This document shows, in pieces, positions 46,867 to 54,631 of a stretch of DNA of 64,000 bases. The notes below the pieces were generated by a model. The model worked only from the letters and a program-made list of their open reading frames with translations, was not told where the DNA came from and ran no database searches. The position numbers and the translations under genes were made by a program. Positions within the stretch are counted from its first letter, which is position 1; the number at the start of each line of letters is the position of its first letter. This DNA comes from an uncultured Flavobacteriales bacterium (lineage in GTDB: Bacteria > Bacteroidota > Bacteroidia > Flavobacteriales_D > CAJJDF01): positions 1,021 to 65,020 of the forward strand of contig CAKZNB010000005.1 in the NCBI GenBank assembly GCA_937129365.1, read 5' to 3'.

Positions 46867-49800
46867 TTATTTTACAACAGTCAATTTCTTAGTAGTATTA
46901 AAGAATTCATTAGAAACTGAAACGGTATACAATCCATTTTCTAATCCGTCTAAGTCAATTACTACTTTATTATTTTCTGTACTTACTTGTTTAGAGTAAA
47001 TCATTTTACCGATAGCATCAAATAATCTGATTGTTACTTCTTCATTGATGTTTTGAGAAAGTACATCAACCGTTACAAAATCAGTTGCTGGATTAGGATA
47101 TACTGAGATATTATCTTCATCAATTACATATTCTTCTAAATCTACACTCATTATTGAGGTACACGCAGATGTATCTCTACATCCTTCTGGTGTTACTACA
47201 ATAACAGCGTAATTACCATTTCTTACTGGAGTGAAAGATTTTGCAGTATCAGTTATAAAGTGTGAGAAATTATTATCACAATCTGCCCATTTGTATTTAA
47301 CTCCTGTTTGATTAGCAGTAAGTGTAATCCCAGATACAGATACTGTTCCAGCATTTGCAAGGTTAATCGTAAGGTTGGTAGTTATAAAGAAACTACATCC
47401 AAAAGCATTTGTTGCAGTATCCTTATAAGTTCCGCTTGTTGTATATACATTCCCAGTTTCTGGAACTGTATAAGTAAAACAAGATGAAATGTTTCTTGTA
47501 GTTGATGAATTAGGGCTTATAGATAAGGTAATTGATATAATACTATCACATCCAACTTTTGTTGAAATTGTATCTAACCTTGTTCCTGATGTAGTCCATA
47601 CTTTTCCACTTGGAGAAGTATAACTTCCACAAGCTGCTATTGTATCAACAGTTCTTTGAGTATAGTTTACAGTTAAATTAGTTCTAATTACACTATCACA
47701 TCCTGATGTTGCAGTTAATGTGTCAAAGAAAATACCCGTAAAATTAACTGTGCTTCCGTCAACTAAGGTATAAGAGTCACAAGCTTGGATATTTAATACT
47801 GTTGTTGCATAAGTAATTACTGTTAAATCTAGTACACTAATTGAATCACATCCAGCAGCGTTTTGAACTGTATCGGAATATATTCCAGTTGCATTGTAAA
47901 ACTTAGTTCCTAATTGAACGCTATCTCCAGAACAAATAGTACTTGAAACAGTATCTCTGTTAATTGATTTTACAAATAAATTTAACGTAGTTATACTATC
48001 ACATCCTGCTGAATTTTGAGTGGTATCTGAATACTGTCCAGTAGTCGAAAGCATTTGAGAACCTAATATATAAGGTGAATTTGCACAAGTTGTATCTGCA
48101 ATGGTATCTCTGATGTAATCATTCACCACCAATTCCATTACTGTAATTGAATCACATCCTGCTGCATTTTGTGCTGTGTCTGAATATGTTCCAGTCATTG
48201 TCAATGTCTGTGTTCCAAATGTAATGCTTGCTCCTTGGCAAATAGTATCTGCAATGGTATCTCTGATGTAATCGTTCACCACCAATTCCATTACTGTAAT
48301 TGAATCACATCCTGCTGCATTTTGTGCTGTGTCTGAATAGGTTCCAGTCATTGTCAATGTTTGTGTTCCAAATGTAATGCTTGCTCCTTGGCAAATAGTA
48401 TCTGCAATGGTATCTCTGATGTAGTCATTCACTACCAATTCCATTACTGTAATTGAATCACATCCTGCCGCATTTTGTGCCGTGTCAGAATAGGTTCCAG
48501 TCATTGTCAATGTTTGTGTTCCAAATGTAATGCTTGCTCCTTGGCAAATGGTATCGGCAATGGTATCTCTGATATAATCATTCACTACCAATTCCATTAC
48601 TGTAATTGAATCACATCCTGCTGCATTTTGTGCTGTGTCTGAATAGGTTCCAGTCATTGTTAATGTCTGTGTTCCAAATGTGATGCTTGCTCCTTGGCAA
48701 ATAGTATCGGCAATGGTATCTCTGAAAGTAGCTCTTACGAATAATTCTAATACTGAAATACTATCACATCCTGCTAAATTTTGTGAAGTATCCGAATATG
48801 TTCCAGTCATTGATAAAGTTTGACTTCCCAGCATTACTGTTGTTCCTTGGCAAATTGTGTCTTGTATTGTATCTCTTTCGATTGATAAAACAGTAAGATT
48901 TAAAACTCTAATACTATCACAACCATTAGCTAAAGTCTGAACTGTATCAGAGAAAATTCCTGTTGTATTATAATATTTAATTCCATTAGTTGCACTATCA
49001 CCTTGACATATAGATTGTGTAGTTGTATCTCTTTTTGTAATACAAGTATAACAGTCGTTTTTATGTCCTCCAATCAATGAATCAGTATCATTTCCTAATA
49101 CTTCCCATTCAGAAGCAGAATAAATAATACTTCCTTGCTGAACTGTTGATTTTCTTACTAAAGTTGTATTAGCAGCAAAATTGGAAGAACTACCCAATGG
49201 TCCAACAATATCAATAGTTACCATATTTTTTTGAAGTGCTACTGGATCATTTCCATTAAAAGAAATACTACCAGAAGTCATATTTGCTTTTGCAACAAGA
49301 TTTGGAAGAGTAGCAGAAGAATTACGGATTACAAAAACTCCATAAGGTGCTATTGAAGTTGATCCTAAACTAATATTATTAGGGCTTGATGCATTTCCAT
49401 TTGTATATCTTACCAATCTGTAATTTGATAGGCTGATTGACGAAGCAGTAGGGTTATAAATCTCAATTCCCTTATTATTAGAACTACCTTCAATGTATTC
49501 AGAAATTATAAGGTCATTACAAGGTTTTGGGCAATACTTAGTTGACAACATTAATTGAACTATACTATCACAGTTACCAGCTCTAGTAATAGTATCAAAG
49601 TATGTTCCTGCTGTTTTTAAATAGACTCCATTAAAAAGTAGGCTATCCTCTTCAGAACAAATTGTATCAAATGCATTGTAAACAACTTCAGTAGTAGTGG
49701 TTAAGTCTAAAACAAAAATTGTATCACAAGTTGAAATTACTGTATCACTATAAAATCCTGCAACCTTGTAAAACTTATTTCTAAATTCTGTGGAATCAAA

Positions 49801-50337
49801 TGAACAAATAGTAGTTTTTATAGTATCTCTCAAAAATCCTGAACAACCAGCTGAGGCATCAGTAATACTAAATTCATCAAGAAGAAGCATTTTTTGACCA
49901 GAGCTTACAATCTTAATATATTTTGCAGATGCATCATTTACAAGCTTTGAAAAGTTTGAATAAGTAGTGTTTGTTAATCCTTTTACAGAATCAACCACGG
50001 TCCAAACAGAACTATCAGGTGAAGTGTATACATAGAAATCAATAGCTGGAGAACTCCAATTTCTGTAGTAAAAAGAAATAGTTCCTATACCTCCCGCTTT
50101 TGAAGGGCTAGTCAAAGAAGATCCATTATCGTCATCCAATCTTACTGCTCGTCCAGAACCTCCAAAAGAATTAGAACCATTTGTCTCAGCCAATCCATCA
50201 AAAATGTACCATCCATTGTAAGAATAATTTCCGTAACCTCCTGAAGAAAATGAATTGAAATTTTCAGTTATCGGGGCTGCTAACATTTTTAATGATAACA
50301 AAAGGCTTATTCCAAGTATTAAGATTCTTTTTGACAT
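46867..50337 (-). CDS. Giant T9SS-sorted adhesin-like protein: N-terminal beta-rich domain, lamin-tail (LTD)-like domain, ~14 two-Cys GCDS modules, and a type A sorting domain
   Basis: The start is set at the ATG at 50337 (MSKRILILGISLLLSLKMLA signal peptide). LTD-like block: LIISEYIEGSSNNKGIEIYNP...LSNYRL. Repeated modules: DT.C.G....G......G.Y.DT.....GCDSI..L.L.V. C-terminus: VYPNPATDFVTV...GLYTVSV. Confidence 0.85.
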   Translation of the reverse strand: MSKRILILGISLLLSLKMLAAPITENFNSFSSGGYGNYSYNGWYIFDGLAETNGSNSFGGSGRAVRLDDDNGSSLTSPSKAGGIGTISFYYRNWSSPAIDFYVYTSPDSSVWTVVDSVKGLTNTTYSNFSKLVNDASAKYIKIVSSGQKMLLLDEFSITDASAGCSGFLRDTIKTTICSFDSTEFRNKFYKVAGFYSDTVISTCDTIFVLDLTTTTEVVYNAFDTICSEEDSLLFNGVYLKTAGTYFDTITRAGNCDSIVQLMLSTKYCPKPCNDLIISEYIEGSSNNKGIEIYNPTASSISLSNYRLVRYTNGNASSPNNISLGSTSIAPYGVFVIRNSSATLPNLVAKANMTSGSISFNGNDPVALQKNMVTIDIVGPLGSSSNFAANTTLVRKSTVQQGSIIYSASEWEVLGNDTDSLIGGHKNDCYTCITKRDTTTQSICQGDSATNGIKYYNTTGIFSDTVQTLANGCDSIRVLNLTVLSIERDTIQDTICQGTTVMLGSQTLSMTGTYSDTSQNLAGCDSISVLELFVRATFRDTIADTICQGASITFGTQTLTMTGTYSDTAQNAAGCDSITVMELVVNDYIRDTIADTICQGASITFGTQTLTMTGTYSDTAQNAAGCDSITVMELVVNDYIRDTIADTICQGASITFGTQTLTMTGTYSDTAQNAAGCDSITVMELVVNDYIRDTIADTICQGASITFGTQTLTMTGTYSDTAQNAAGCDSITVMELVVNDYIRDTIADTTCANSPYILGSQMLSTTGQYSDTTQNSAGCDSITTLNLFVKSINRDTVSSTICSGDSVQLGTKFYNATGIYSDTVQNAAGCDSISVLDLTVITYATTVLNIQACDSYTLVDGSTVNFTGIFFDTLTATSGCDSVIRTNLTVNYTQRTVDTIAACGSYTSPSGKVWTTSGTRLDTISTKVGCDSIISITLSISPNSSTTRNISSCFTYTVPETGNVYTTSGTYKDTATNAFGCSFFITTNLTINLANAGTVSVSGITLTANQTGVKYKWADCDNNFSHFITDTAKSFTPVRNGNYAVIVVTPEGCRDTSACTSIMSVDLEEYVIDEDNISVYPNPATDFVTVDVLSQNINEEVTIRLFDAIGKMIYSKQVSTENNKVVIDLDGLENGLYTVSVSNEFFNTTKKLTVVK
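48094..48705 (-). repeat. Four tandem 153-bp in-frame units, each encoding an identical 51-aa module
   Basis: Unit boundaries are at 48094, 48247, 48400, 48553 and 48706. Each unit translates to RDTIADTICQGASITFGTQTLTMTGTYSDTAQNAAGCDSITVMELVVNDYI. The DNA differs at 13 positions among the units. Confidence 0.95.
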
Positions 50338-50414
50338 TGTTGTTTTTTTAATTTGCAACAAAAGTATAAATCTTAAAATCAAATAGTACAATGTTTTATG
50401 TTAAATAATTATTA

Positions 50415-50476: not shown

Positions 50477-53400
50477 TTAGTTAATAACAGTAACTTTTTT
50501 TGTTGTTACAAAGAACTCATTTGAAACTGATACTGAATAGATACCAGCCTCTAAAGAAGATACATCAAATGTAACCTTACTGTTTAGACTAGAAATCTCT
50601 TTTGAGTATACTAATTTACCAACTGCATCGAATAACTTAACAGTTACATTTTCGTCAGCATTTAGTTTTGCAATATCAATAGTAACAATGTCATTAGCAG
50701 GGTTAGGGAATATTGAAATATCAGAAGCTGAAACTTCATATTCATCTAAACTAACACTCATAATCATTGTACATGCCGAAGTATCTTTACATCCATCAGT
50801 AGTTTCAACCTCTACTGCATAGTTACCATTTCTAAATGGAGTAAACGATTGTCCTGTTTCTCCTAATAAATAAGAGTAATCATTGTTACAATCAACCCAC
50901 TTGTATGATACACCTGTTACAGATGAAGTAAGAGTAATTCCTGATACAGAAACTGTTCCAGCATTTGCAGAATTAATAGTTAACACTGTAGTTATAGTGT
51001 GATTACATCCATAAGTGTTTGTAGTTACATCAGTATAAGTTCCGCTTGTAGTGTAAACTGAACCAGTTTCTGGAACTGTATAGCTAAAGCAAGAAGATAT
51101 AGTTCTTGTTTCTGATGTTACTGGACTTATAGATAAACTAATTGTCATTAAACTATCACAACCTGAAGCATTAGGTATAGTATCAAATCTAGAACCTGAA
51201 GTAGACCAAACTTTTCCACTTGGAGAAGTATAAGTTCCACAGGCAGCTACAGATATTGAAGAACTAGTAGTATAGTTAATAGTTACGATAGAAGTAATAA
51301 TACTATCACATCCTAATGAAGTAGGAACAGTATCTTTAAATGTTCCAGAAATTGGAGTTACATATCCATCTGGTAGTGTATAACTATCACATGCTGTTAC
51401 AGTATTTGTAACAGAGATAGCATTATTAACCGTTAAGTTAATTGTAATGATACTATCACAACCAATAGAATTAGAAATTGTATCCATATACATACCAGTT
51501 GTATAGAATGTTTTTCCACTTGGAGCAACCATTGAATCACAAACTGTAGGTGATACAGTAGCAGTAGTATTATTTACTACAAGTGTAATAACTAATATAC
51601 TATCACAACCTCTCACTTTTTGTAAAGTATCGTTATAAGTACCTGGCATGTTCCAAATTTTTCCACTTGGGGATACATAAGTACCACATGCAGTATCTGT
51701 ATAAGAAATCGTACTTGGAACACATAAATTAGTTACTAAGAAATTATCAATGTGTACATCATAATCAGCATTAGATACTGTAGAGGCAGCATAAAATCCA
51801 AACTTAACAACTCCAGTATATGCACTTAAGTCAATAAATTCTCTACTTCCTGCATTTGTTGGCTCATCACCAGATACATAGTTTCTAAGAATATTTGCTG
51901 AAGTCCATGTTTGACCAAAATCAGTTGAAATTACAAAAGCTAATGTGTCATCAGACCCCATTGCATCTGATGATGTAGAAGCATAATCAGTTAATGCAGC
52001 ATCAAATTCAACTTGGTAAGGAACAGATCCATCTCCTAAGTCGATTGGATTAGAAATAATCCAGTCATTTTTACCTGTACTCCATATATTCATACTAACA
52101 GCACCAGTAGATCCAACATTAGCAAATCCATCAGCTTTCCAATCAGAATTACCTGAGACAACATTAGATGATGTAGTTAAAAAACCATTTGCTTCTTCCC
52201 AACAAGTTGGGGTATAAGTAGCGAAATCTTGAGAGTATGTTGGTACATCAGGATTACATTGTGTAGTGAATGTAATTGGTCCAACCCAAGCAGTAGTATC
52301 TCCTACTCCACAATAAGCTCTTACATAATAGTCATAAGTAGTAGAAGCAGTTAATCCTCCTAGCCCTTTAGTAGTTGTTGTTGTAGAATCTAAAGTCCCT
52401 GCTCCAGGAGTAAATCCGGTCGCACCATACTCTATATAGTATTTTGTAGGGGTTCCAAATTGTTGAGTCCAAGACGCAGTTGTAGAATCATTAATTGTTC
52501 CATTTGCCATAGCCATTGAAGGGGTAAAACATGTTGGAGATTCAATTACAGCAATATCATCTAAACAGATATCACCTTCGTATGATCCATTACTCACTGC
52601 AACAAATCTTAATTGAATAATACCAGAATATGAAGATAAATCTACAAATTGTTGGTTCCAAGGAGAAGCTTGTGTTGCTTGTTGTGCACCTGTAATAGTC
52701 AATTCATTACTCCAAGTTGTACCGTCAAAAACTTCAACACTAACTGACCCTATTTGATTTCCAAACATATGGTAATAAAATTCTAAAAATGGTGTTGTTA
52801 AAGAAGTTAAATCAATAGATGGAGAAATTAAAGTTGTAGTATCAGAAGTACCTGCACCAGAAGCTTCGGTATAGAAGAAATTTGTTCCGCTATTGGCAGA
52901 TAAAGCTCCCGTAAAACTTGAACCAGTTGTACCAGAATTAGTTATCTCCCATTCAAAACTAGAACCAGTTTTAGTTCCAGACCAACAGTTTGCAATACCT
53001 GTAATAGTATTTGTTGAAGGATGTCCTTCAACATCGTCCATCCATGGACCTAAGTTTGTATCATTACATAATGTAGTAAAGCTGTAAGGACCAGCCCAAG
53101 GACTTGAGTCTGTTGGTGTACAAATAGCAGTTACATAAAATTCATATGTAGTAAAAGGAGATAATCCTGTTAATGGAACAGTATCATTTGACTCTATTGT
53201 AGAAGTACCAGTTCCTAATGTAAATCCTGGTGCTCCAATTTCAACTCTCCATGATGTTGCTGTTCCTGCCTCTGTCCAATTGATACTAGCTGTAGTTGCA
53301 GTTATAGCATGAGCTCCAAGAGATGTATTTGAAGGTTCTGGACAGTTTGGAATTTTTTCAGCTTTAAAATCATCTATTCCAAATCCCCATGATGAGGAAG

Positions 53401-54631
53401 TAGAATAAGTTTGGTGAAAGGCTACATAAATCTTTTGATTAGTGTATGCTGATAAAGCAACGATATGCTCAACCCAACTAGTATTAGAACAATCTATTGT
53501 AGTAATAGAATCAGTAAAATCAGCAATTGCTGTTCCTGTGGTTGAAACTCTTACTGTGTAGGTATTATTTCTTGTTGCAGATTCAACAATATCCCAGAAA
53601 CGCAATCTAATTGGATCAGCTCCAATAGTAAATTGTGGAGTAATTAAATAATCATCATTATTACCCATACCATGTGCCGTCCAAGATCCTGACCTTGCAG
53701 TAATGTATGTACTAGACTGAGACCATGTTGGTCCTCCATCGTTATTAATAACTTTCCAACAATCCCAAACTCCAGCAGTTAATGTACCATCAAAATTTTC
53801 GGTGTATGGAAATGTGCTTACTGATAAACAAGGAGTTGTAAATGTAAATGGTCCAGATATAACACTAGTATCTCCAATTGCACATAACACTCTAAAATAA
53901 ACATCATAAGTTGTGTTGGCAGTAAGTCCAGCTATTGTATCTGAAGATGCAGAGGTCAATCCCTGAGTTCCTGTTCCTAAAGTGAAACCAGTTGGTCCAT
54001 ATTCGTATCCATATCCTAAAGGAGTTCCTGAATAAGTCCAAGACATTATTGCAGAATCAGCAGATGGAGTTGAAATATTAACTGTATTAAGTTTAGGACA
54101 ACTAGGAACAAAAACTTTTGGTCCTTCTAAACTATCTATATATAGATAATATTCATAGTTAGCAGTATATCTAATTGAAATGTATTTTGTTCCAGAAGGT
54201 ACAACTTCAACATGCTTTTGCCAACCAGTTGTTGTAGCATTGGTTACTGTAGTTCCATATGTAAAACTTGCTAAAGCACTGTCTGTAGAAGAAACACCCA
54301 CAGCAAAAGGTTCAGTACCAAATGTTGACGATTTTCTGTAATAGAAAGTAACACTATCAGCAGCAGTAACATCCAAAAGCGGACTAATTAAATATTGATC
54401 ATATGGAGAACCTGAAGAAAATGAACTAAATCTAAATGATCTTGATCCAGCATATGCCTGGTCAGTTGAATGAGTCATTATGTTTCCAGATGCTGGAGTT
54501 GCGTTTGCGTATTCTAATCTCCAATCAATTGCTGGAGGAGTTGAGCTTTCAAAACTTTCTGATAACCTTTGAGAATAGGTTAAAGATGTTATCAAAAACA
54601 GCGATAACAATACAATGTAATTTTTCTTCAT
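50477..54631 (-). CDS. Giant T9SS-sorted surface protein: four alternating beta-sandwich (MAM / choice-of-anchor-J-like) and Fn3-like pairs, ~6 GCDS modules, and a type A sorting domain
   Basis: The start is set at the ATG at 54631 (MKKNYIVLLSLFLITSLTYS signal peptide). Fn3-like blocks recur (W......Y.VEYG..GFT.G.G......T...L.GL...T.Y..YV...C). The C-terminal ~290 aa are paralogous to 46867..50337. C-terminus: IFPNPANDIVTI...GIYSVSV. Confidence 0.85.
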   Translation of the reverse strand: MKKNYIVLLSLFLITSLTYSQRLSESFESSTPPAIDWRLEYANATPASGNIMTHSTDQAYAGSRSFRFSSFSSGSPYDQYLISPLLDVTAADSVTFYYRKSSTFGTEPFAVGVSSTDSALASFTYGTTVTNATTTGWQKHVEVVPSGTKYISIRYTANYEYYLYIDSLEGPKVFVPSCPKLNTVNISTPSADSAIMSWTYSGTPLGYGYEYGPTGFTLGTGTQGLTSASSDTIAGLTANTTYDVYFRVLCAIGDTSVISGPFTFTTPCLSVSTFPYTENFDGTLTAGVWDCWKVINNDGGPTWSQSSTYITARSGSWTAHGMGNNDDYLITPQFTIGADPIRLRFWDIVESATRNNTYTVRVSTTGTAIADFTDSITTIDCSNTSWVEHIVALSAYTNQKIYVAFHQTYSTSSSWGFGIDDFKAEKIPNCPEPSNTSLGAHAITATTASINWTEAGTATSWRVEIGAPGFTLGTGTSTIESNDTVPLTGLSPFTTYEFYVTAICTPTDSSPWAGPYSFTTLCNDTNLGPWMDDVEGHPSTNTITGIANCWSGTKTGSSFEWEITNSGTTGSSFTGALSANSGTNFFYTEASGAGTSDTTTLISPSIDLTSLTTPFLEFYYHMFGNQIGSVSVEVFDGTTWSNELTITGAQQATQASPWNQQFVDLSSYSGIIQLRFVAVSNGSYEGDICLDDIAVIESPTCFTPSMAMANGTINDSTTASWTQQFGTPTKYYIEYGATGFTPGAGTLDSTTTTTKGLGGLTASTTYDYYVRAYCGVGDTTAWVGPITFTTQCNPDVPTYSQDFATYTPTCWEEANGFLTTSSNVVSGNSDWKADGFANVGSTGAVSMNIWSTGKNDWIISNPIDLGDGSVPYQVEFDAALTDYASTSSDAMGSDDTLAFVISTDFGQTWTSANILRNYVSGDEPTNAGSREFIDLSAYTGVVKFGFYAASTVSNADYDVHIDNFLVTNLCVPSTISYTDTACGTYVSPSGKIWNMPGTYNDTLQKVRGCDSILVITLVVNNTTATVSPTVCDSMVAPSGKTFYTTGMYMDTISNSIGCDSIITINLTVNNAISVTNTVTACDSYTLPDGYVTPISGTFKDTVPTSLGCDSIITSIVTINYTTSSSISVAACGTYTSPSGKVWSTSGSRFDTIPNASGCDSLMTISLSISPVTSETRTISSCFSYTVPETGSVYTTSGTYTDVTTNTYGCNHTITTVLTINSANAGTVSVSGITLTSSVTGVSYKWVDCNNDYSYLLGETGQSFTPFRNGNYAVEVETTDGCKDTSACTMIMSVSLDEYEVSASDISIFPNPANDIVTIDIAKLNADENVTVKLFDAVGKLVYSKEISSLNSKVTFDVSSLEAGIYSVSVSNEFFVTTKKVTVIN

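Follow-up and report, generated by a model that had tools for sequence, protein, structure and literature searches.

Identical peptides with silently diverged codons in the tandem repeats of a Bacteroidota T9SS cargo protein: a probable case of old repeats under strong purifying selection

Near-identical repeats in bacterial surface proteins are usually taken to be young, recombination-prone DNA in which the identity of the protein is incidental. Periscope Proteins and fibrillar-adhesin stalks (SasG, Aap, Rib, and Sgo_0707 with its SHIRT domains) carry a distal head on a stalk of tandem, highly similar folded domains, and their repeat number varies between related strains (PMC8201768). For these proteins, it was proposed that length variation requires high DNA identity and that the identity of the protein follows from it (PMC8201768). 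A survey by Persi, Wolf and Koonin (2016) described spread by tandem duplication under purifying selection (dN/dS below 1), with repeats of one protein diverging faster from each other than from their orthologues (PMC5120217). In eukaryotic polyubiquitin genes, head-to-tail coding units specify one peptide while their silent sites differ, the units are more similar within a genome than between species, and unequal crossing-over alters copy number. Strong purifying selection combined with slow concerted or birth-and-death evolution is the accepted explanation (Sharp and Li 1987; Nei et al. 2000; reviewed in PMC10457151). Among Bacteroidota, GhpA of Aureispira is a T9SS substrate made of disulfide-linked, glycosylated Ig-like repeats (bioRxiv 10.1101/2024.01.29.577165).

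The window examined here is a 64,000-nucleotide stretch from a metagenome-assembled genome (MAG) of a marine Flavobacteriales bacterium. On the minus strand, in frame within the ORF at 46867..50391, it contains four 153-nt units at 48094..48705 (boundaries 48094/48247/48400/48553/48706), each of which translates to the same 51-aa peptide, TICQGASITFGTQTLTMTGTYSDTAQNAAGCDSITVMELVVNDYIRDTIAD. The units vary at 13 sites, with plus-strand offsets 3, 21, 24, 27, 33, 69, 81, 87, 93, 108, 114, 129 and 150. All of these (13/13) are synonymous differences at third codon positions, comprising 10 transitions and 3 transversions. The units, their boundaries and the silent sites were described in an earlier sequence-only reading, and a recount reproduced every number, including pairwise differences of 3 (units 1 and 2), 7 (units 2 and 3) and 6 (units 1 and 4). 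The remaining pairs differ at 8 (units 1 and 3), 7 (units 2 and 4) and 10 (units 3 and 4) positions, for an overall range of 3–10. Tandem Repeats Finder independently reported a period of 153 nt with 4.7 copies at 48092–48812. According to the translation and the unit table, the full amino-acid-identical block (48091..48723, minus strand) is slightly longer than first described because the preceding unit likewise ends in RDTIAD. The block consists of that ending, the four units and the first T of the next unit.

The two levels of identity are uncoupled in this array, which sets it apart from the Periscope Proteins: DNA identity between units is 93.5–98% and protein identity is 100%. Since all differences are silent and dS reaches 0.36, the protein identity cannot be a by-product of DNA identity. 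The array protein also differs from Periscope Proteins in being Gram-negative T9SS cargo built from an unrelated, unnamed 51-aa module.

The gene (46867..50337, minus strand) encodes a 1156-aa surface protein that was assigned to the type-A T9SS cargo from the ORF list, its translation, and matches to Pfam LTD, Por_Secre_tail and TIGR04183. The ATG at 50337 was used as the start; the database gene call adds 8 codons upstream (start at 50361), and a TTG at 50391 opens the mechanical ORF. An identical protein is present in a public collection (P0029/P0123). By inspection of the translation, the N-terminus, MSKRILILGISLLLSLKMLAAP, reads as a putative Sec signal peptide. The lamin-tail domain (LTD; 49201..49524, minus strand) was identified by PF00932 (E 3e-16, residues 290–397 of P0001), and the same region partly matches the N-terminal part of the ExeM model NF033680. 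The type-A C-terminal sorting domain (46876..47103, minus strand; residues 1097–1172 of P0001) matches PF18962 (E 1.5e-14) and TIGR04183 (E 7.9e-10), both with scores exceeding the model cut-offs. SprA, the component of the T9SS machinery that was searched for, is encoded in the genome (translocon, 2479 bits), as are 84 type-A tails.

Following the LTD is a run of about ten 50–51-aa two-cysteine modules (47488..49011, minus strand; C-x27-GCDS, G-x-Y-x-DT), delimited with a motif scan, the NG86 table and AlphaFold models. The flanking modules in the run are 30–70% identical to the four central units. No Pfam or NCBIfam model covers the run. The motif scan placed two more copies of the 51-aa module upstream of the LTD (approximately 49516..49818, minus strand; CDT at residue 222 and CDS at residue 274 of P0001), and the whole protein has about 12 two-cysteine modules. 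In protein order the N-terminal head and the LTD are distal to the array. Each unit contains two invariant Cys and four copies of the O-glycosylation sequon D-(S/T)-(A/I/L/V/M/T), a motif taken from PMC8550257; 48 sequons were observed compared with 9.1 ± 2.8 in shuffled sequences. The modules probably carry both disulfides and O-glycans, judging from these residues. The neighbouring gene (50477..54631, minus strand) encodes a paralogous T9SS cargo with a different head (choice-of-anchor J / Cleaved_Adhesin, fn3, MAM) and the same module type, and its C-terminal ~390 aa are 57% identical to the array protein. The other genes within 3 kb encode a 164-aa protein with no Pfam match, urocanase and a thioredoxin-like protein.

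An AlphaFold model of three units, with an alignment built from the window and fetched loci, is all-beta and elongated (pLDDT 87), and its strands run across the unit boundaries. A 460-residue array model based on a 25-sequence alignment was poor (pLDDT 63) and served as a lead only. The modules are thus predicted to be small, interlocked beta modules, and the array may form a rod-shaped stalk that projects from the cell. A Foldseek search of the PDB with the 3-unit model gave the neck and stem of the GhpA grappling hook as best matches (9flp_A, E 1.8e-6, TM 0.35; 9flw_A, E 3e-4, TM 0.43), and the longer, poorer model matched GhpA with E 1e-13. GhpA and SprB (PDB 9flp, 9flw, 9fly) are likewise Bacteroidota T9SS substrates in which small beta (Ig-like) modules follow one another in long runs and which carry disulfides and D-S/T-x O-glycan sites, the last two features being predicted from sequence in the array protein. 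The likeness has limits. TM-scores are only 0.35–0.43, and neither the 460-aa array nor a 50-row profile matched any PDB sequence, GhpA included. GhpA is 5898 aa long, whereas the array protein has 1156 aa and a type-A tail. Dedicated PorP/PorE-like anchor genes adjoin the genes for GhpA/SprB-like filaments, but there are none among the neighbours within 3 kb of the array gene. Finally, GhpA forms a parallel homo-heptamer; the model of the array protein covers a monomer fragment.

All of these results derive from assemblies, not raw reads. In principle a shorter or more homogeneous repeat could have been mis-assembled, in which case the 13 sites would be silent polymorphisms among the strains of a mixed population. 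Most strain polymorphism in coding DNA is silent, the source is a MAG, the matching ENA metagenome contig NODE_622 has a k-mer coverage of only 5.25, and assemblies of relatives break within these arrays. However, NODE_622 is 100% identical over 9.5 kb, array included; two assemblies that differ in contiguity (a 328-kb and a 43-kb contig) match base for base across that distance. The longest exact direct repeats within the array are 65, 74 and 59 nt, so reads of 100–150 nt can resolve it and phase neighbouring sites. Strain variants would give a de Bruijn assembler bubbles or a collapse instead of additional in-frame units, and no stray array fragments were found elsewhere in the bin. The same pattern also occurs in a sister species, in an isolate of Taibaiella helva (L026) and in long-read-style contigs (L019 and L027). 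We regard an assembly artefact as the least probable of the explanations considered.

With a transition/transversion bias of 1–10, neutral mutation is expected to make 23–31% of changes in the unit synonymous. The probability of 13/13 synonymous sites is then 5e-9 to 2e-7, so the all-silent pattern is more than chance, and neutral mutation of the array is rejected. The sequence-only reading had argued that such a pattern is not what recent neutral duplication predicts. That much is correct, but neutrality is too weak a null, and compared with realistic purifying selection the pattern is only moderately unusual: the probability of no nonsynonymous change is 0.11 at an omega of 0.05 and 0.03 at an omega of 0.08. 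The same reading had offered strong purifying selection on an exact peptide as one alternative, and codon-aware dN/dS estimates (NG86) for the central and flanking units bear this out. Among the four units dN is 0 at dS 0.09–0.36, giving an omega of 0 with a 95% upper bound of 0.068, and low omega recurs in independent arrays. The flanking units differ from the central four by dN 0.24–0.5, with omega ~0.3–0.4.

We therefore favour strong purifying selection on repeats that expanded fairly long ago as the best explanation for identical peptides with silent differences, with a probability of about 0.68. Tandem duplication by unequal recombination would have produced the four copies in this lineage, well after its split from the sister species, and the copies of a small disulfide-containing beta module would build the stalk of a T9SS-exported cell-surface protein. 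Each copy would since have gathered ~0.1–0.2 substitutions per silent site. Every amino-acid-changing mutation would have been purged by purifying selection on the module (omega below ~0.07), while silent changes drifted freely and units exchanged sequence occasionally at most. The patterns of two sites (GAAG and AAGG in gene order) are incompatible with each other, so there was either a single exchange between units or a recurrent mutation. The constraint may arise from the predicted interlocking of the last and first strands of adjacent units; with the four glycosylation sequons and two cysteines that each 51-residue unit also holds, few positions would be left free. The outcome matches the regime long known from polyubiquitin genes: one peptide, codons that have diverged, and a closer likeness of units inside a genome than across species. 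The likeness is one of evolutionary regime only and implies no homology. Ubiquitin is cleaved to monomers and is almost invariant across eukaryotes. In contrast, the array units stay within one secreted bacterial surface protein with no recognisable processing site, and the strands predicted to cross unit boundaries argue against release of single units. Two other candidates were dropped. The changes are all silent and show no adenine specificity, as would not fit a diversity-generating or hypermutation mechanism, and no ORF of at least 100 aa was found on the opposite strand as an overlapping gene.

Other arrays of the same module, from a sister species, long-read-style metagenome contigs and the Taibaiella isolate, have omega of 0.02–0.11 at dS up to 0.6, and DNA identity between their units falls to about 88%. 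The sister species G001 has two amino-acid-identical unit pairs, each with 6 synonymous and 0 nonsynonymous differences, and its five units together give an omega of 0.066. The nine units of L019 vary at 14 synonymous and 3 nonsynonymous sites. None of its silent sites is a singleton; balancing selection for silent diversity was considered and dropped, as a three-unit higher-order repeat in the site patterns explains this better. None of the 22 units of L028 are identical in DNA (pS 0.40, pN 0.028), and L027 and L026 have omega of 0.02–0.11. Arrays L025–L028 were picked for exact protein repeats of at least 40 aa and are thus biased towards low dN.

Between related species the unit sequence differs by 12–45%. 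Units of one genome share lineage-specific residues, Q4/A25/N27/V40/Y44 in this array and M4/V25/T27/L40/I44 in G001. Freely varying amino acids in the units of related strains had been named beforehand as evidence against an exactly conserved peptide. Variation of this kind was seen in some sister species. For the species of the array, JGI metagenome contigs scanned for a protein pattern and for an exact 33-nt DNA match yielded no second strain, and the one further record of the protein has 100% identical DNA. Copy number also changes. Members of one 90% cluster in a sister species have 1112 or 1163 aa, one unit apart, and differ in unit order. The locus had been described as the opposite of a contingency locus; this holds in that protein identity is no by-product of DNA identity, but the module family still changes copy number.

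The sequence-only reading had also proposed that DNA divergence itself is selected. Silent differences would be favoured because they reduce homologous recombination or slippage and stabilize copy number where stalk length matters. Units that are identical in protein and only 93.5–98% identical in DNA are compatible with this idea, as are the 22 DNA-distinct units of L028. Relatives' assemblies break exactly within such arrays, a hint that there are more homogeneous arrays which are unstable or difficult to assemble. Yet adjacent units are no more diverged than non-adjacent units in this array (6.7 vs 7.0 differences), L019 (8.0 vs 7.6) or L028 (16.7 vs 17.3), and in L027 adjacent units are much more similar than distant ones. 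The spacing of silent differences is no more even than random in 6/6 pairs, pS is within the bounds of codon-usage saturation, and two adjacent units differ at just 3 sites. Adjacent units still share exact in-register runs of 44–65 nt, and the longest run overall is 74 nt. Shen and Huang are said to have found in 1986 that RecA-dependent recombination in E. coli has a minimum of ~25 bp, and the surviving runs are well above that length. L025, a long-read-type contig, holds 82 DNA-identical unit pairs, which means that homogeneous arrays persist too, and the sister arrays differ by whole units. Ordinary silent-site drift accounts for the data without an extra force, and selection for DNA divergence is improbable.

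A different possibility is that the sameness of neighbouring units is itself under selection, so that a changed unit is removed or overwritten while silent sites remain free. Within the array omega (0, <0.07) is below the between-species omega of the unit (0.08–0.2 at dS 0.6–1.4), although dS between species is near saturation, so that the vertical omega is overestimated, and the within-array sample is four units only. This order is the reverse of the general rule, in which divergence is faster between repeats than between orthologues (PMC5120217). Elsewhere in this genome, two tandem-domain arrays have an omega of 0.16–0.22, and none of their pairs has a dN <0.04. In other sister arrays, unit pairs that are young and near-identical split 16:19 between synonymous and nonsynonymous differences, compared with 13:0 here (Fisher P = 5e-4). 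The omega of ~0.3–0.4 between flanks and block makes a sharp step between a block held identical and the rest. In L019 all 3/3 nonsynonymous sites are singletons, compared with 0/14 synonymous sites, and in the structural model strands cross unit boundaries.

On the other side, zero nonsynonymous changes fits a uniform omega of 0.03–0.05 (P 0.11–0.27), and the pre-selected family arrays do not differ in ratio from this array (182 synonymous to 40 nonsynonymous, P = 0.13). Mixed unit types are tolerated within one stalk in sister species. Possible grounds for selected sameness, a shared beta-hairpin interlock, in-register packing between chains (cf. the GhpA heptamer) or a regular multivalent or glycosylated surface, depend for oligomerisation and inter-unit contacts on modelling and analogy. 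We consider selected sameness, on any of these grounds, unlikely. On the most far-reaching view, the amino-acid identity of neighbouring units would be directly selected and long maintained (dS 0.2–0.6), and neither recent duplication nor DNA homogenisation would account for it; we give this a minor but real chance. If true, the arrays would be a bacterial, structural counterpart of polyubiquitin. They would be a counter-example to the Periscope-Protein logic and to the rule that adjacent domains diverge against misfolding, and uniform units would be functionally needed, for example for interlocked or in-register packing or regular glycan display. Several reasonable baselines are looser than the constraint seen in the array, among them the head domain of the orthologue, with an omega of 0.27 between strains of one sister species, so to speak of "ordinary" purifying selection may be an understatement. 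The underlying mechanism is nevertheless ordinary population genetics.

With old repeats under purifying selection as the preferred reading, this array and related ones from several Bacteroidota lineages indicate that the protein and DNA levels of repeat identity can be uncoupled. A peptide held exactly while its DNA drifts implies that each stalk unit is selected for its protein sequence. The array is a natural test case for why some stalks stay uniform despite the supposed misfolding cost of identical neighbours, for how old "identical" repeats can be, and for a short-read assembly bias in which only arrays with silent differences assemble. The array also draws attention to the 51-aa two-cysteine module itself, which is abundant and widespread in Bacteroidota, rich in glycosylation sequons and without a Pfam or NCBIfam model.

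The open reading frame that carries the array occupies 46867..50391 on the minus strand, with a likely ATG at 50337. Within it, four tandem units of 153 nt (48094-48705) each encode the same peptide, TICQGASITFGTQTLTMTGTYSDTAQNAAGCDSITVMELVVNDYIRDTIAD, in frame with the boundaries drawn in the sequence-only reading. The 153-nt period was also recovered by Tandem Repeats Finder. That reading had counted differences of 3, 7 and 6 between three pairs of units and a total of 13 variable sites, every one silent. Recounting and translation confirmed the units, their boundaries and these numbers; the remaining pairs differ at 8, 7 and 10 nucleotides. All 13 variable offsets (13/13) are third codon positions and synonymous, with 10 transitions and 3 transversions. 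Random mutation is expected to be synonymous in 23-31% of cases, depending on transition bias, which gives P(13/13) = 5e-9 to 2e-7. The silent-only pattern is therefore correct and not a product of chance, and its excess over neutral expectation was rightly noted. Two of the 13 sites are informative for parsimony and group the units in incompatible ways, which means a single inter-unit exchange or a single recurrent mutation.

The genome containing the window (G000) has 54 contigs, and the window's contig is 328 kb. A 9.5 kb segment including the array is base-for-base identical in the ENA metagenome contig NODE_622 (43 kb, coverage 5.25), so at least two assemblies of this metagenome-assembled genome agree with each other. 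The longest exact repeats within the array are 65, 74 and 59 nt, and no array fragments were found on the other contigs of G000. That the array is an assembly artefact is very improbable, mainly because the silent-only pattern recurs in independent assemblies of other organisms.

Values of dN and dS were obtained by Nei-Gojobori counting. Among the four units dN = 0 and dS is 0.09-0.36, and the flanking units compared with the four gave dN 0.24-0.5 and dS 0.6-1.5. With 13 changes at ~35 silent sites and 0/118 replacement sites changed, the 95% upper bound of omega (dN/dS) is 0.068. The pattern had been attributed either to strong purifying selection on an exact peptide or to selection for DNA divergence between copies. 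The bound on omega supports the former, while no signature supporting the latter was found.

Neighbouring units differ from each other no more than units further apart do, both in G000 and in two arrays of the same module from other contigs, L019 and L028. In a third, L027, adjacent units are clearly more alike, as predicted for simple tandem duplication. The longest identical run was shorter than under random placement of an equal number of silent changes in 0/6 unit pairs. RecA-dependent recombination in E. coli needs roughly 25 bp. Identical runs of 44-74 nt persist between units, one adjacent pair having only three differing sites, and these runs exceed that length, which argues against selection for DNA divergence. 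Among sister-species members of one 90%-identity cluster, both copy number (1112 vs 1163 aa) and unit order vary. Between the sister-species strains L021 and L023 (proteins P0129 and P0134) the orthologue is strongly mosaic in dS, which is 0.106 for the head, 0.038 across the array and 0.000 over the C-terminal 315 aa. This suggests inter-strain recombination, with the breakpoint inside the array or close to it.

Short-read assemblies carry only arrays whose units differ in DNA, and silently differing arrays are therefore over-represented among assembled ones. DNA-identical arrays also exist, as on the long-read-type contig L025. Contigs of same-genus genomes end inside the orthologous array (G001:C21 end, G001:C63 end, G002:C10 start, G002:C94 start and G004:C53 end), so copy numbers there are minimum values. 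The more homogeneous arrays are probably under-assembled.

Other arrays of the same module were examined, those of G001 and L019 being orthologous arrays from the same genus and those of L025-L028 belonging to more distant proteins. In G001, a sister species whose array breaks two contigs, two pairs of amino-acid-identical units have 6 silent differences in each pair, and omega over five closely related units is 0.066. The nine units of L019, which to judge by its contig name comes from a long-read metaMDBG assembly, vary at 14 silent and 3 replacement sites, and 3/3 replacement sites are singletons. None of the 22 units of L028 are DNA-identical (pS 0.40, pN 0.028, omega 0.05). Omega is 0.09 and 0.02 in the 8- and 4-unit arrays of L027, 0.08-0.11 in the 7- and 6-unit arrays of a Taibaiella helva isolate (L026), and 0.06 over the 23 units of L025, which include 82 DNA-identical unit pairs. 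Pooled, and with G001 and L019 included, these arrays have 182 silent and 40 replacement sites; against them 13:0 is unremarkable (P = 0.13), L025-L028 having been chosen for exact protein repeats of at least 40 aa, which biases them to low dN.

Two of these loci have features of their own. L025:301-4950 (ENA ERZ25039464 contig_47105) encodes a 1549-aa protein made nearly entirely of 52-aa units, and the 23 near-identical units have just 8 distinct DNA versions. It exemplifies the young, DNA-homogeneous end of the module family. In the nine-unit array at L019:3480-4860 (ENA ERZ26052287 ctg20739_2.55x_l) several silent sites have a three-unit period (ATTATTATT, GAAGAAGAA), and units 4 and 7 are DNA-identical; together these point to a three-unit higher-order repeat amplified as a block. 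At L019:5255-6084 the reading frame of the gene breaks off after 1084 aa, leaving the type IX secretion system (T9SS) tail in a separate 267-aa ORF, probably through an indel error at 2.55x coverage and not a real truncation.

Stricter comparators set the array apart. In further sister arrays (G010, clusters 3 and 4), young pairs of near-identical units have 16 silent and 19 replacement differences, against which 13:0 gives P = 5e-4. Strains of a sister species, compared over the head of the orthologue, give omega 0.27. In G000 itself two unrelated arrays of tandem domains, G000:C25:84104-86053 (8 units of 73 aa) and G000:C30:16632-22837 (25 units, each 80 aa long, in which Cys and DT/DS motifs are conserved), gave omega 0.16-0.22 with no pair at dN < 0.04. 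Between species the unit itself has omega 0.08-0.2, with dS near saturation. The family shows two regimes, units long held identical or nearly so and units that are diversifying, and the window array belongs to the first. A 120-nt repeat at G000:C19:19071-19343, two 40-aa units rich in Ala, Lys and Val, has 11 silent and 4 replacement differences and so is a further pair whose changes are mostly silent.

The simplest account that fits everything would begin with a tandem expansion, specific to the lineage because the units have species-specific residues in common, followed by a time long enough for silent drift during which replacement changes would be efficiently purged. In polyubiquitin genes synonymous substitutions likewise build up among repeats of the same protein, which are closer within than between species (PMC10457151), and the window array resembles them in its identical peptides and diverged silent sites. 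For Periscope Proteins, protein identity was proposed to follow from high DNA identity that permits length variation (PMC8201768); here, in contrast, peptide identity exists without DNA identity. As a general rule, the repeats of a protein were found to diverge from one another more quickly than from their orthologues (PMC5120217), and the array does the opposite. It is a genuine, clean and recurring example of an evolutionary regime that is already known, in an abundant stalk module without a name, and a counter-example to the view that surface-protein repeats match because their DNA matches.

The gene product (P0001; 1156 aa from the ATG) has a signal peptide and a head of about 170 aa without domain assignment. 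Two 50-51-aa two-cysteine modules and a lamin-tail domain (PF00932, E 3e-16) follow, then some ten further two-cysteine modules, the four identical ones central among them, and finally another beta domain and a C-terminal type-A T9SS sorting domain (PF18962, TIGR04183). The genome encodes SprA and 84 type-A T9SS tails. The adjacent upstream gene is paralogous; its head differs, but its modules are of the same type. The two-cysteine module is covered by no Pfam or NCBIfam model, and a PDB sequence search with it found no relative. More than 5000 proteins matched it, the majority from Bacteroidota and carrying the annotation gliding-motility-associated or T9SS C-terminal-domain protein.

An AlphaFold model of three units was built from 50 aligned three-unit windows (mean pLDDT 87). 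It has five strands per unit, and the last strand of one unit is predicted to form a hairpin with the first strand of the following unit, so in the model the units look interlocked and not like beads on a string. Among PDB structures its fold is closest to fragments of GhpA (E 1.8e-6 and 3e-4, TM 0.35-0.43), the T9SS-secreted grappling hook of Aureispira, whose stem consists of disulfide-linked, O-glycosylated Ig-like repeats (bioRxiv 10.1101/2024.01.29.577165). This match is a lead to a rigid-stalk function and not proof of homology. The Bacteroidota O-glycosylation motif, D-(S/T)-(A/I/L/V/M/T) (PMC8550257), occurs 4 times per unit and 48 times in the whole protein, compared with 9.1 +/- 2.8 in shuffled sequence. 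Dense glycosylation, which is reported for GhpA, may also occur on this stalk. On the evidence of four units, direct selection for uniformity between neighbouring units is rather improbable; the constraint may instead come simply from each unit being a small module that is glycosylated, disulfide-bonded and tightly packed.

The most conserved motifs of the module at 46867-50337 (minus strand), Y-x-DT-A, GCDS-I, R-DT-I and A-DT-I, all fit the sequon. At 49000-49524 (minus strand; residues 292-469 of P0001) the lamin-tail domain and ~70 following residues match the NCBIfam model of ExeM, an extracellular nuclease, over its N-terminal positions 24-200 (E 4.6e-37, far under the full-length cut-off). 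The nuclease part of ExeM is missing from P0001, and the piece common to both may serve as a head that binds DNA or a surface.
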